The notes beneath the pieces were generated by a model that did not search any database, had not been told where the DNA came from, and saw only the letters and a program-made list of their open reading frames with translations. Shown piece after piece: positions 16,184 to 64,000 of a DNA stretch of 64,000 bases. This DNA comes from Gammaproteobacteria bacterium (GTDB lineage: Bacteria; Pseudomonadota; Gammaproteobacteria; SZUA-21), in NCBI GenBank assembly GCA_003233345.1, contig QILK01000044.1, positions 4,874-68,873 of the forward strand, given 5' to 3'. Within the stretch, counting starts at the first letter, position 1. Every line of letters begins with the position of its first letter. The position numbers were made by a program, and so were the translations under genes.

Positions 16184-16336
16184 GTAGCCCGGACTTCGCG
16201 CAGCGAACGCCGGGGAAAGAACATGATATTAACCCGCTTTCTCGTGGAATATTTATTGTTCGATAGCCGAGGGCTTCTATTGAATTTATGAGCACTATTC
16301 TTTTCCCCGGCGTTCGCTGCACGAAGTCCGGGCTAC
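16184..16336. mobile_element. MITE-like element copy A (about 153 bp) with about 30-bp terminal inverted repeats GTAGCCCGGACTTCGCGCAGCGAACGCCGGG
   Basis: Perfect or near-perfect inverted termini; same termini recur at 17788-17943 and 62590-62743. Confidence 0.8.
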
Positions 16337-16359: not shown

Positions 16360-17778
16360 TTGGAAGTTACTAGCGTGACCACATATACCTCATCATCTTT
16401 ACCCAAAATAGTTGAAAAAAAGCTCAAAAAAATCTGTGCCAATGGATTTTCTGTTGATGAGTCTGAACGCTATGCCTATGGTTACGATAATAGTCGTAAA
16501 CACAGTATGCCGAATGCGGTTATATTTGCAGAAAACCATCAACAGATACAAGATATTATTAAAATCTGCTACGAGTATAGTGTTCCTATAGTCGCCAGAG
16601 GCCGCGGTACTGGTACTACCGGTGGATCGATACCGCTGAAAAAAGCGATCGTCTTAAGCCTGGAAAGAATGAACCGGATTCTAAAAGTTGATCCTGACAA
16701 CCGGATGATGATTGTCGAACCCGGTGTGACCAATGCCGAAGTGCAGCGCGCGGCGGCTGATTGCGGGTTTTTCTGGCCGCCAGATCCGACCAGTGCCGAA
16801 TACTGCTCAATTGGTGGAAACCTTGGCTTTAATGCCGCCGGCCCGAAAACGGTAAAATACGGTAGCACTCGCGATAATACCCTCGGCCTAAAAGCAGTAA
16901 CCGGCACTGGAGATACATTAGTTACTGGGGTAAGAACTACAAAAGGTGTTGTCGGTTATGACTTGACAAGGCTTCTCATTGGCTCAGAAGGCACTTTAGC
17001 CATTATCACTGAAGCGACTTTAAAACTAACACCACTCCCCGATTGTGTGGTAACACTTCAATTTATCTTCGACAATATTCATAATGCAGCGACAGCTGTT
17101 TCAGCAATAATGAAGCAACCCGCTACACCGTGTGCGCTAGAGTTTATGGACAAGCATTCACTAGATCTGGTCAAAAATAACCCAGATCTTAATATTCCTG
17201 AGCAGGCCGGCGCGATGTTAATCGTTGAAATAGATGGTTTTAAGTCTGAATTAACTGAAAGCATCACTATGATTAAAACAGCAGCGGCTACCAGCCCTGG
17301 GCTAATTTCATCCCAGAGCGCCACAACCCCAGCAGAGATTAACTCGCTCTGGGCTGCGAGAAAGCAGCTTTCACCGGCACTACGGCGGATTGCCCCAAAA
17401 AAAATTAATGAGGATGTTGTCGTACCCGTTGCCAATATCCCTGCTTTAATTGAATACATCGAAAACCTGAGCCTGCATTATCAAATACCAATCGTTAATT
17501 TTGGACATGCTGGCAACGGCAATATCCATGTAAATTTACTCATCGATCCAAGCAACAAGATACAAATGGAAAACGAAACCAAATGCCTTAGCGACTTATT
17601 TGATAAGGTACTGGCACTGGAGGGAACCCTGTCGGGAGAGCACGGTGTTGGTATAGAAAAGCGCGATTATATCGACCGGGAAATCTTGCCCGTCGCATTA
17701 AACCTGATGCGTCAAATAAAATCGTCATTTGATCCAAAAGGCATACTCAATCCAGACAAGATTTTCCCACGAAAGTAG
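16360..17778 (+). CDS. FAD-linked oxidase, GlcD/D-lactate dehydrogenase family (start codon uncertain: TTG 16360, GTG 16375 or downstream)
   Basis: FAD-binding PCMH-type domain (RGxGTG...), C-terminal SGEHGVG motif typical of GlcD-like oxidases; no glcE/glcF partners adjacent. Confidence 0.8.
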   Translation: MEVTSVTTYTSSSLPKIVEKKLKKICANGFSVDESERYAYGYDNSRKHSMPNAVIFAENHQQIQDIIKICYEYSVPIVARGRGTGTTGGSIPLKKAIVLSLERMNRILKVDPDNRMMIVEPGVTNAEVQRAAADCGFFWPPDPTSAEYCSIGGNLGFNAAGPKTVKYGSTRDNTLGLKAVTGTGDTLVTGVRTTKGVVGYDLTRLLIGSEGTLAIITEATLKLTPLPDCVVTLQFIFDNIHNAATAVSAIMKQPATPCALEFMDKHSLDLVKNNPDLNIPEQAGAMLIVEIDGFKSELTESITMIKTAAATSPGLISSQSATTPAEINSLWAARKQLSPALRRIAPKKINEDVVVPVANIPALIEYIENLSLHYQIPIVNFGHAGNGNIHVNLLIDPSNKIQMENETKCLSDLFDKVLALEGTLSGEHGVGIEKRDYIDREILPVALNLMRQIKSSFDPKGILNPDKIFPRK

Positions 17779-17787
17779 CCCACGAAA

Positions 17788-17943
17788 GTAGCCCGGACTT
17801 CGCGTAGCGAACGCCGGGGGAAAGAAATAGGATTCGAAATTCAATTAAAACAGGCGACTGTGCTAGGTAGTCGGTAACTGACTAAAACAGGGAGAAACAG
17901 GATGTTCGCTCTCCCGGCGTTCGCTACGCGAAGTCCGGGCTAC
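17788..17943. mobile_element. MITE-like element copy B (about 156 bp); internal sequence is the reverse complement of copy C
   Basis: Same 30-bp TIRs; begins at the glcD-like stop codon; followed by a degenerate partial right end at 17963-17998. Confidence 0.8.
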
Positions 17944-17962
17944 AGGTTGATAAAAATTTTGA

Positions 17963-17998
17963 GGATGTTCGTTCTTTTGGCGCAGTCCGGGTTGCAGC
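17963..17998. repeat. degenerate partial copy of MITE right terminus
   Basis: AGGATGTTCGTTCTTTTGGCGCAGTCCGGGTTGCAG resembles AGGATGTTCGCTCTCCCGGCGTTCGCTACGCGAAGTCCGGGCTACAG with an internal deletion. Confidence 0.5.
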
Positions 17999-18027
17999 TG
18001 ATAAAAATTCTACTGATGGACCAATAT

Positions 18028-23360: not shown

Positions 23361-23518
23361 CCCCTATCGATAAAATATTCATTCGAGCCCGAATATTTCA
23401 TAAATTTGAACTGACTAATTTAACAATTTTAAGTGCTATTAGCTGTTGTATTTTAGGCTATTTGAATTTGGGGTTATTATCCTATTTAGCAGCGCCCTTT
23501 ACATCCGCGAGCCACAAG

Positions 23519-23837
23519 ATTTTTTTCAGCGCAGACAACTGGGGTTGTAATGACGCTGAAAAAAACTTCTGACTCGCGTGAATTTAGGGGAAACCTAAAT
23601 AGCTTCACTGCTGTCCCATCATTCCGGACTTGTTCCTGAATCCGGTGTTTTCAACAACTTCCTGAATGCCGGAGCAAGTCTGGGCAGTGAAATATCTTAT
23701 AAAAAAGAATAACAATATCAAATTCACTGGAAGCCCCTCTACGGTCAGTCAGAAGATTTTTTTTCGCGTCATTACAACCCCAGTTGTCTGCGCGAAAAAA
23801 AAACTTCTGACTGACCGTAGACCGTAGAAAGAGGGGC
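23519..23837. repeat. about 320-bp nested palindromic element (MITE-like or structured RNA) between convergent degS-like and hisC
   Basis: Left unit TTTTTTTCAGCG-CAGACAACTGGGGTTGTAATGA-CGCTGAAAAAAA-CTTCTGACT and its inverse copy at the right end, outer inverted repeats CCCCTCTACGGTCAGTCAGAAG / CTTCTGACTGACCGTAG(ACCGTAG)AAAGAGGGG, plus further internal palindromes. Confidence 0.7.
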
Positions 23838-23895
23838 GTTCTAAAAAAGGATAGTAGCCCAAGCCACAGCTTAATTTTTATATTTCATAAAAAGG

Positions 23896-61342: not shown

Positions 61343-62320
61343 CTATTGGTTTTCATCAAGCTTTTCGTATGCGGTTACAATACGTTGCACTAACGGATGC
61401 CGAACAACATCGCGCGCGCTAAAAAAATTAAAACTTATGCCATCGACATCTTTCAGTACGTCAATCACATGGCGCAAACCGGATTTACAATTGCTGGGTA
61501 AATCCACCTGGGATATGTCGCCGGTAATGACTGCTGTCGACCCGAGGCCAATACGCGTTAGAAACATTTTCATTTGCTCGACAGTGGTATTCTGGGCTTC
61601 ATCAAGAATAATAAACGCATCATTCAACGTGCGTCCACGCATATAAGCAAGTGGCGCTATTTCAATGACACTTCTTTCAACCAGCTTTGCTACTTTTTCA
61701 AATCCGAGCATTTCGTACAATGCGTCATAAAGCGGACGCAGGTAGGGATCTATTTTTTGCGCCAAATCGCCAGGCAGGAAACCCAGTCGCTCCCCCGCCT
61801 CTACCGCAGGTCGAGTCAACACCACACGTCGTACAGTTTGCTTTTCCAGTGCATTGACCGCGCAAGCGACAGCCAAAAAAGTCTTACCCGTACCGGCTGG
61901 CCCGATTCCAAAATTGATATCGTACCGTAACATATTTTTGAGATACTGGGCTTGGTGAGGTCCGCGTCCCTTCACCTGGATTTTTCGCAAACTAACGATG
62001 ACCTCTTCCACAGACGCTTCGGGAATGCCGCCACTGTCCATCAACCCGGACTCCTGCAAACACAAATGCACTTCTTTCATAGATAGCGCGCCTGCTTCAG
62101 TCGCGTCATACAGTTTACTGATAACCAACTTGGCCAACTGGGCACTGGTCTCGTCGCCAATCACCTGAAAATGACTGCCGCGATTATTGATTTCGACACC
62201 CAGCCTGCTTTCCATTAAGCGAATATGCTCATCGAACTGGCCGCATAAATTGGCTAAGCGCAAATTGTCCGCCGGTTCCATATGCAACTCGATTGATGTC
62301 TTGGGGTGTTCTAGTTTCAT
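61343..62320 (-). CDS. ybeZ: PhoH-like ATPase YbeZ
   Basis: 325 aa, Walker A GPAGTGKT. Confidence 0.9.
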   Translation of the reverse strand: MKLEHPKTSIELHMEPADNLRLANLCGQFDEHIRLMESRLGVEINNRGSHFQVIGDETSAQLAKLVISKLYDATEAGALSMKEVHLCLQESGLMDSGGIPEASVEEVIVSLRKIQVKGRGPHQAQYLKNMLRYDINFGIGPAGTGKTFLAVACAVNALEKQTVRRVVLTRPAVEAGERLGFLPGDLAQKIDPYLRPLYDALYEMLGFEKVAKLVERSVIEIAPLAYMRGRTLNDAFIILDEAQNTTVEQMKMFLTRIGLGSTAVITGDISQVDLPSNCKSGLRHVIDVLKDVDGISFNFFSARDVVRHPLVQRIVTAYEKLDENQ

Positions 62321-62589
62321 TCGGTATTAAAAACAGGGGGAAAAGTCGTGTTAGCGTTGGAAAGAATAAAATTCTGGATACGGCCTGCCCTGCAAATATA
62401 TCGGAAGATAAATCCACAAATAAAGTTGGCACAAATACCGAATATGAAACTGACCACGGAAACAAGTCTCATGGTCAAAGTATGGTTCATGTTACCGGTA
62501 TCAGCAAGTGACAATCCATGTATATCCTCTACGAAATGTATGCTATTCATTTTTAATTTATCTGTAATTTATTTGTATATTATATATAG

Positions 62590-62743
62590 GTAGCCCGGAC
62601 TTCGCGCAGCGAACGCCGGGAGAACGAACATCCTATTTTCCTGTCTTAATCAGCTACCGGCTACCTTACGCATATTCCTGTTTTAATTGAATTTTGAACC
62701 CTATTCCTTTTCCCCGGCGTTCGCTGCGCGAAGTCCGGGCTAC
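62590..62743. mobile_element. MITE-like element copy C (about 154 bp)
   Basis: Same 30-bp TIRs as copies A and B; internal sequence is reverse complement of copy B interior. Confidence 0.8.
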
Positions 62744-62768
62744 GGGTTCTCTTAACTAAGCGAAAAAT

Positions 62769-64000
62769 TTAGCCGGTTGATGAATTTTCTAATTGTTCTT
62801 GCTCAACCAGTTCGCCCTGTAAGCTATTCGGTAATGCACTTGTTATTTTTACCGTAACAAATTGTCCAATTAAATTTTTGTCCCCGGTGAAATTGACTAC
62901 GCGGTTATTTTCAGTACGCCCCGCCATTTGCTCAGCCTGTTTTGTCGATACACGACTGACTAAAATAATTTGATCCGTTCCAACCATGCGTCGGCTTATC
63001 TGCGCACTTAGATTGCTTATCTTTTTTTGCAATAGCGCCAACCGCTGTTTCTTAGTTTCCATCGACACATCGTCTATGGCAGAAGCCGCAGGTGTCCCGG
63101 GGCGAGCACTATAAACAAAACTGTAGGAATGGTCAAAACCTATTTCATCAATCAATGCCATGGTCGCATTAAAATCGTCTTCTGTTTCGCCGGGATAACC
63201 CACAATAAAATCCGAGGATATTGAAATAGCCGGTTTGACTTTTTTCAGCGCTTTTATTTTTTCGACATACTCAGCAACGGAATGCCCCCTTTTCATCAAA
63301 GAAAGAATCCTGTCAGACCCACTTTGAACGGGTAAATGCAAATGTTCCACCAGTTGATCGACCTCGGCATGTGCCTGGATCAGGCTCGCCGTCATCTCCA
63401 CCGGATGTGAAGTGGTATAGCGAATTCTATCAACGCCATCAATTGCGGCAACATAATTAAGTAGTAACGCCAGATCCGCATCGCCGCCACCAAACAATTC
63501 TCCCTGATAGGCATTAACATTTTGACCCAATAATATAATTTCCCGAACCCCCTTGGCGACCAGCAAAACCACCTCGGCAATAACATCATCCAATGGCCGG
63601 CTGATTTCCTCGCCACGGGTATAGGGCACAACACAAAAAGTACAATATTTGCTACAGCCTTCCATGATCGAAACATAGGCCGAAGGGCCGTCGGCCCGGG
63701 GTTCAGGCAGATTGTCAAATTTCTCAATAGCCGTAAACTCAATATCAACAACGGCTTTGTGTTTTTGTCCGACTTCATCCAGTAATTGCGGCAATCGATG
63801 TAAAGTCTGCGGACCGAATACGATATCGACAAAGGGCGCTCTTTGGCGCAGCAATTCACCCTCCTGACTGGCAACGCAACCGCCGACACCGATTAGAATA
63901 TTTGGGTTAGATTCCTTTAACTCACGCCAACGGCCGAGTTCGGAAAAGACCTTTTCCTGCGCTTTTTCGCGGATAGAACACGTGTTTAACAACAATAAAT
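62769..64000 (-). CDS. miaB: tRNA-2-methylthio-N6-dimethylallyladenosine synthase MiaB, C-terminal about 410 aa; N-terminus beyond window end
   Basis: Radical-SAM CxxxCxxC ([11 protein letters not shown]) and TRAM domain; upstream of ybeZ as in miaB-ybeZ-ybeY-corC-lnt operons. Confidence 0.9.

Follow-up and report, generated by a model that had tools for sequence, protein, structure and literature searches.

A dispersed family of short inverted-repeat elements, best read as REP doublets, in intergenic spacers of an uncultured marine gammaproteobacterial lineage

Results

Genes and Repeat Elements in the Window

In the stretch of gammaproteobacterial DNA analyzed here (64,000 nt, hereafter the window), a non-coding element of 154 nt, element C, separates miaB from ybeZ, and the genes downstream of it on the minus strand run from a 77-aa open reading frame (ORF) through ybeZ/phoH and ybeY to corC (Table 1). 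Should transcription of miaB run beyond its stop codon, the 3' untranslated region of that gene would hold the element. Checked against NCBIfam, MiaB scores above its curated cutoff, and the PhoH/YbeZ-like, GlcD-like and DolP-like proteins encoded next to the copies are named from best hits that lie below cutoff; the database copy of ybeZ, at 100% identity, begins at Met14 (312 aa). The nearest named relatives of the window proteins, at ~60-70% identity, belong to vent, symbiont and sulfur-oxidiser-like Gammaproteobacteria.

Six matches to the arm pattern GTAGCCCGGACTTCGNNNAGCGAACGCCGGG are present in the window, with 0.00 expected (100 shuffles), and these six arms bound three elements, A, B and C. 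The first-pass annotation of this DNA had placed a 154-nt element between ybeZ and miaB as an inverted member of the same family, and its coordinates and arms are borne out, with nhmmer matching element C across the whole length of the model (E = 3.6e-43). The interior of C had also been described as the reverse complement of that of B, and the two indeed match at full length in this orientation (104 nt at 85% and 49 nt at 94%); C and A match in direct orientation and at their ends only. The subterminal motifs of the C spacer, GAACGAACAT on the left and TTGAATTT on the right, are common to the other spacer types of the family too. As was recognized at the outset, all three copies lie within ~45 nt of a stop codon: A starts 42 nt past the stop of the dolP-like gene (16141), with 23 nt between its end and the start of the GlcD-like ORF, B starts 9 nt past the GlcD-like stop (17778), and 25 nt separate the end of C from the miaB stop codon (62769, minus strand).

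Table 1. Positions of the repeat elements, their parts and the neighboring genes in the window.
Feature	Position	Strand	Description
Element A	16184..16336	+	REP doublet, type III spacer; between dolP-like and GlcD-like genes
13-nt tandem duplication, CCACGAAAGTAGC x2	17767..17792	+	Covers GlcD-like stop codon and first bases of B head
Element B	17788..17943	-	REP doublet, type I spacer, inverted relative to C; convergent GlcD-like/sspB spacer
Degenerate tandem duplicate of B right end and flank	17962..18008	+	11-nt deletion through hairpin center
ybeZ, phoH-like	61343..62320	-	Downstream of C on minus strand; best NCBIfam hit below cutoff
Element C	62590..62743	+	154 nt; complete REP doublet (REPIN-like), type I spacer; between miaB and ybeZ
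Left REP of C	62590..62620	+	Exact pattern match; folds alone as ssDNA, -9.9 kcal/mol; GTAG head, 5-bp stem, 2x2 internal loop, 5-bp stem, 3-nt loop
Spacer of C, type I	62621..62712	+	92 nt
Right REP of C	62713..62743	-	Inverted copy, 31/31 complementary to left REP
Tail between C and miaB stop codon	62744..62768	+	25 nt; absent, like the element, from L050 (88% identity)
miaB	62769..64000	-	5' end beyond window edge; TIGR01574, 521 bits vs cutoff 355

At the junction between the GlcD-like gene and B, the 97%-identical orthologue (L051, positions 1455-1493) holds a single copy of CCACGAAAGTAGC, and the TAG of its GlcD-like stop codon is the TAG of the B head. The window has acquired its 13-nt duplication since that state. 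As a separate observation, the 23 nt outside the right arm of C (GGGTTCTCTTAACTAAGCGAAAA, window 62744-62766) recur with 3 mismatches at positions 1635-1657 of an unrelated locus (L003, a gor-marR spacer), again outside a right arm and next to a different spacer type; this 23-mer could be a preferred target, part of a longer variant of the element, or a chance match.

Structure of the Arms and Doublets

A census of the family by Hamming-distance scanning for the arm, covering the window and 48 loci of other assemblies and requiring one near-exact arm per locus, returned 79 arms and 23 complete doublets, which agrees with the earlier description of a dispersed family rather than a local duplication. 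Each arm consists of GTAG followed by CCCGG-AC-TTCGC-GCA-GCGAA-CG-CCGGG (in outline GTAGCCCGGACTTCG...CCGGG), the latter part being a palindrome of 27 nt that folds alone as single-stranded DNA, at -8.7 to -10.1 kcal/mol, and leaves GTAG unpaired. The G, A and G of the head are each found in 72 of 74 arms and the T in all 74, with partner arms free to differ, and these values are inflated by ascertainment because one near-exact arm was demanded at every locus. Subject to the same ascertainment, pairwise diversity is 0.02-0.03 in the arms vs 0.2-0.36 in the spacers.

The doublet is a conserved unit. The GTAG heads face outward in all 23 doublets, the lengths fall between 144 and 162 nt with a single exception of 204 nt (n = 23), and the arms are perfectly complementary in 11 of the 22 independent doublets. 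Three spacer subfamilies are carried on common arms, namely type I (n = 12, including B and C), type II (n = 8) and type III (n = 2, A and one other). The doublets are homodimers of one REP type and occur as single units, the sole reiteration being a degenerate partial tandem duplication, and the family also includes solo arms, truncated copies and degenerate partial tandem duplicates. All 23 doublets lie outside long ORFs, as judged by heuristic ORF calls. Loop variants agree between the two arms in 14 of 22 doublets, which is not significant (permutation p ~0.1). A search for structure in the type I spacer yielded a weak 5-bp hairpin with almost no covariation, and Rfam at gathering thresholds returned RNase P only for the whole window, with nothing around the element at E <= 1.

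The first-pass annotation classed the element as a MITE with terminal inverted repeats. A classical MITE would be a deletion derivative of an insertion sequence (IS) with 31-nt terminal inverted repeats that are bound as double-stranded DNA by a DDE transposase acting in trans, and several features are those of such an element, including the long perfect terminal repeats, the small uniform size, the non-coding interior with its defined orientation and subfamilies, and the dispersal of copies in both orientations. What speaks against this classification is that no flanking direct repeat, and hence no target-site duplication, was found at any of the 23 complete copies, that the arms are themselves GTAG-headed hairpins which also exist as free-standing solo units, and that the window and loci yielded neither a transposase nor any longer element bounded by these ends; moreover, the arm gave no match to viral contigs or plasmid collections. 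We consider a classical MITE unlikely. The combination of GTAG-headed, self-folding arms with the absence of target-site duplication argues for a REP doublet and not for a DDE-type MITE, and the original label has to be given up, a REP doublet being a MITE in the loosest sense only.

Distribution and Abundance

Beyond the three elements in the unselected 64 kb of the window, the arm is present on at least 3 contigs of at least 2 metagenome-assembled genomes (MAGs) from one hydrothermal-vent metagenome (in a scan of one genome per species) and, in a metagenome scan, on 45 contigs, all from one marine-sediment assembly. Many of the sediment contigs start or stop within the arm, as is expected where assemblies are broken by a high-copy repeat. 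Element C is one copy of a genuine dispersed family, probably of high copy number, in an uncultured marine gammaproteobacterial lineage.

Orthologous Loci in Related Lineages

The closest comparison for element C is a sediment contig (L011) with 93% nucleotide identity to the window across 1.6 kb, in which the copy is in place. Its arms differ at 3 of 62 positions, a level of change close to that of spacer and flanks at an overall identity of 93%, as counted by eye in this single comparison. In L050, where the flanking genes are 88% identical, element C is absent; this is not a clean empty site, as L050 has 99 unrelated nt in place of 192 nt of the window (the element, its 25-nt tail and a further 13 nt).

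For elements A and B, both copies are present in L051, a Logan contig with 97% amino acid identity in the GlcD-like protein, which begins in the right arm of A and ends in the left arm of B. The end of this contig is an artificial palindrome of the arm. Both copies are absent from the syntenic locus L052 (69% amino acid identity), which is without such a REP and has 18 nt between the GlcD-like gene and sspB.

Two further syntenic loci, L055 and L054 (GlcD-like proteins 62% and 68% identical), carry other GTAG REPs, again in the dolP-glcD and glcD-sspB spacers. In L055 (2386-2480 and 9824-10000) these are GTAGCCCG...CGGG variants together with GTAGCCCGGCTCTTCAGAGCCGGG, including a heterodimer of two long GTAGCCCG...CGGG REPs, and in L054 (6056-6456 and 6935) they are GTAGGGTGCGTTGTACGCACC and GTAGCCCGGGAATACAATCCCGGG, with a pair of GTAGGGTGCGTTGTACGCACC enclosing repeats of ~113 nt. 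The presence of other GTAG REPs in the same spacers indicates that such REPs are general in this group and that these spacers tolerate them.

Position Relative to Genes

The observation that all copies abut stop codons holds for the three copies in the window and in part for the family, in which ~14 of the 23 doublets have the 3' end of a gene within 45 nt (by heuristic ORF calls). Start codons are within 45 nt of 6-7 of the 23 doublets, with several loci placing the element 2-32 nt from a downstream start; the elements almost fill short spacers, and the distance to a start codon can be as small as that to a stop codon. Spacers show no orientation bias with respect to the upstream gene, at roughly 9 to 6 (again by heuristic ORF calls).

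At several loci, the element itself appears to supply the stop codon. Heuristic ORF calls have a neighboring ORF ending at the TAG of a GTAG head in L015 (958-961, 94 aa), L042 (179-182, 238 aa) and L044 (1535-1538, 508 aa), and in the apparent ancestor of B the GlcD-like gene likewise stopped at the TAG of the head. Read from the arm sequence, its other two reading frames are free of stop codons. An element landing in the final codons of a gene would consequently be tolerable mainly in the one frame with a stop, and this frame-limited tolerance would leave copies abutting stop codons without any targeting. The closeness to stop codons is not specific, and the survival of harmless insertions fits it better than the targeting of terminators does. 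An insertion preference for terminator-like hairpins, which the first-pass annotation had suggested, is not upheld, given that downstream starts are equally near and that the TAG of the head is itself the stop codon in several cases.

RNA-Level Properties

If transcribed, the element is predicted to form a hairpin with a stem of more than 31 bp (MFE -83.1 kcal/mol, z = -9.6), in keeping with the long perfect RNA stem that had been anticipated for the arms. Recruitment of the copies as transcription terminators had been proposed as well. In a scan for intrinsic terminators at A, B and C, no terminator-like site was found and no U-run follows the hairpin, the T-run being located inside the element, before the exit arm and not after it; since there is no U-tract, recruitment as an intrinsic terminator is without sequence support. 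Similarly, no consensus site for a sigma-70-like or outward promoter was found at the window copies. With the consensus sites absent at A, B and C, both an intrinsic terminator and an outward promoter within the element were ruled out.

Effects of the element at the RNA level are nevertheless plausible by analogy with the REPs of E. coli, and the family could be viewed as a host-selected 3'-UTR hairpin that is kept locus by locus for termination or mRNA stabilization. The predicted hairpin is very stable, most copies are near the 3' end of a gene, and the REPs of Escherichia coli are described in one report as capable of acting as partially Rho-dependent terminators and as mRNA stabilizers (10.64898/2026.03.23.713779). 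Arguing against such selection are the missing U-tract and terminator-like sites at the window copies, the 88%-identical L050 with the same locus devoid of the element, the mixed orientation of the spacers by heuristic ORF calls and the equally near downstream starts. The arms of L011, which by that single by-eye count have changed about as much as spacer and flanks, also argue against selection at this locus. On balance, we regard host selection of an RNA hairpin as quite unlikely.

Discussion

REP Doublets Probably Spread by a RAYT

REPs are numerous in a genome and lie almost entirely outside genes. They are defined as palindromes of 20-50 nt that are preceded by GTAG, and an irregular stem is a feature linked to the group-2 TnpA-REP type (PMC8266576). 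From its sequence, element C is best read as a REP doublet, that is, as an ordinary REPIN and not as a new kind of transposon or terminator. More fully, we think it probable that the element is a doublet (a REPIN or "HH dimer") of a high-copy family that has been spread by a RAYT, a role that we infer from the anatomy of the family and from characterized REPs. Two copies of a single GTAG-headed REP, inverted and with their heads outward around a spacer of ~92 nt, would have spread as single-stranded hairpin DNA, by analogy with characterized REPs, through an HUH/Y1 transposase encoded in single copy (RAYT = TnpA-REP), for which the GTAG motif and the irregular stem would be the recognition signals. 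Such a single-strand mechanism would leave no target-site duplication. Copies would last where they are harmless, in short spacers and often just past a stop codon, which in some cases is the TAG of the head itself. Once transcribed, the stem could act as a barrier to 3' exonucleases, reduce read-through or recruit RNase III, effects that would be incidental and dependent on context.

A RAYT gene (PF01797), which in a REPtron stands between REPs of its own family, was sought with phmmer, using E. coli RayT (NC_000913) against six-frame ORFs, and none was found in the window and loci (188 to about 220 kb), although the E. coli control was recovered; likewise, a scan of the window and loci for the HUH motif (HxH...YxxxNP) recovered only the E. 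coli RayT control. The REPIN reading also has a counterpoint in the spacers, which exceed those of most described REPINs in length and whose orientation is defined, features that a classical MITE would match too.

The mobilizing enzyme might instead be an ordinary multi-copy TnpA, and not a domesticated RAYT, acting on a palindrome-associated derivative of IS200/IS605. TnpA-REP is closely related to the TnpA of IS200/IS605, and a derivative of this kind would follow the same single-strand hairpin logic and lack a target-site duplication. The ends of these insertion sequences, however, are two different subterminal hairpins and not one inverted GTAG palindrome at both ends, no conserved target tetranucleotide is seen beside the copies, and no TnpA was found in the window and loci. 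We hold such an origin to be very unlikely.

A further alternative is that the family is a host-domesticated 3'-end cassette, combining a stop codon with a protective or RNase III-sensitive hairpin, or that it persists without any RAYT. The basis for this reading is that the arms are near-invariant over at least 2-3 species-level lineages and three spacer subfamilies and that the head is repeatedly the stop codon of a housekeeping gene. Either version strikes us as improbable compared with a RAYT-spread REP doublet.

Comparison With Known Palindromic Repeats

Classical bacterial MITEs that act at the RNA level include the Correia elements of Neisseria and the ERIC/IRU elements of enterobacteria, non-coding palindromes that are ~100-160 nt long and co-transcribed with adjacent genes and whose long stems can be substrates of RNase III or RNase E. 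Correia elements have a TA duplication and transposase-type inverted repeats. To our knowledge, neither Correia elements nor ERIC/IRU have a GTAG-headed, self-folding arm. The element resembles both in size and in its palindromic, non-coding form but differs in being without a duplication and in having GTAG-headed arms.

Other parallels are found among REPs and REPINs. The anatomical traits of the present family are all on record for REP doublets, whether as REPINs (PMC3337134) or as HH dimers of GTAG repeats (PMC3733652). GTAG repeats are most often arranged as HH dimers around a conserved spacer of 20-100 bp (Di Nocera et al., 2013; PMC3733652), and the main text of that survey names no Alteromonas, Glaciecola or Colwellia family. 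REPIN spacers vary much more than the REPs themselves and form several classes, and singlets are apparent decay products (PMC3337134). The REPINs of Pseudomonas fluorescens SBW25 and other gammaproteobacteria (Bertels and Rainey, 2011; PMC3337134) are like the present family in having identical inverted REPs around a spacer that together form one long hairpin, in their tight spacing, in their variable spacers that fall into classes, in their singlet decay products and in their extragenic location. Unlike them, the family described here has a REP of 31 nt (vs about 16-25), a GTAG rather than a GTGG/GTGA head, an internal 2x2 mismatch, and a ~92-nt spacer that ranks among the longer ones described, with no RAYT linked and excision not observed.

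E. coli TnpA-REP recognizes GTAG together with an irregular stem (PMC8266576). The REP/BIME system of E. coli, with its group-2 TnpA-REP RayT/YafM (PMC8266576; PMC3479197), offers a second comparison, in that both systems combine GTAG with a long imperfect palindrome and a stem irregularity, pair a REP with an inverted REP across a linker, occupy spacers after genes and are sometimes reiterated together with flanking DNA. The two differ in that there is no sequence similarity beyond the head and no conserved CT cleavage dinucleotide evident beside the REP here. Moreover, BIMEs are alternating Y/Z heterodimers with defined linker motifs, often in tandem arrays, whereas the present elements are single homodimers and are not BIMEs in that sense.

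Among published sequences, a literature search with the arm returned the REP of Pseudomonas mendocina ymp only, with the first 10 nt in common. This REP, GTAGCCCGGATGCAATCCGGG, is RAYT-associated and has the same head (Nunvar et al., 2010; PMC2817692). Head and outer stem are alike in the two (GTAGCCCGG...CCGGG), and the window REP differs in its extra inner stem, TTCGC/GCGAA, and internal loop.

What is new is one more REP/REPIN family, from an uncultured vent and sediment gammaproteobacterial lineage; the REP/REPIN type itself is already known. Its value lies mainly in annotation, in that these repeats break metagenome assemblies, with many sediment contigs ending in the arm, give rise to spurious small ORFs and can pass for a novel transposon or terminator. 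Because related lineages have different GTAG REPs in the same spacers, the group would also be a reasonable one for studying the co-divergence of REPs and RAYTs, given a complete genome.

Additional Features of the Window

The 77-aa ORF between element C and ybeZ (window 62317-62550, minus strand) overlaps the start of the ybeZ ORF by 4 nt and is annotated as a gene in L050. The window, L011 and L050 share an identical core of this ORF, FIFGICANFICGFIFRYICR, and codon changes between the window and L050 number 25 nonsynonymous vs 3 synonymous; a search against NCBIfam gave no hit. The region may encode a small membrane protein, or it may be a conserved leader or regulatory region. Directly upstream of this small ORF (window 62551-62589), an 11-nt unit, ATTACAGATAA, has one copy in the window, two in L011 and three in L050.

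An unrelated palindromic repeat lies elsewhere in the window, inside a convergent spacer of 535 nt (23361-23895). It comprises two inverted hairpin units of ~60-85 nt (23510-23575 and 23738-23821) with A/T runs around a GC core, the 56-nt arms being 88% complementary and the second unit containing a perfect-like palindrome of 31 nt. From their sequence, these units look like bidirectional terminator hairpins or members of another small repeat family.
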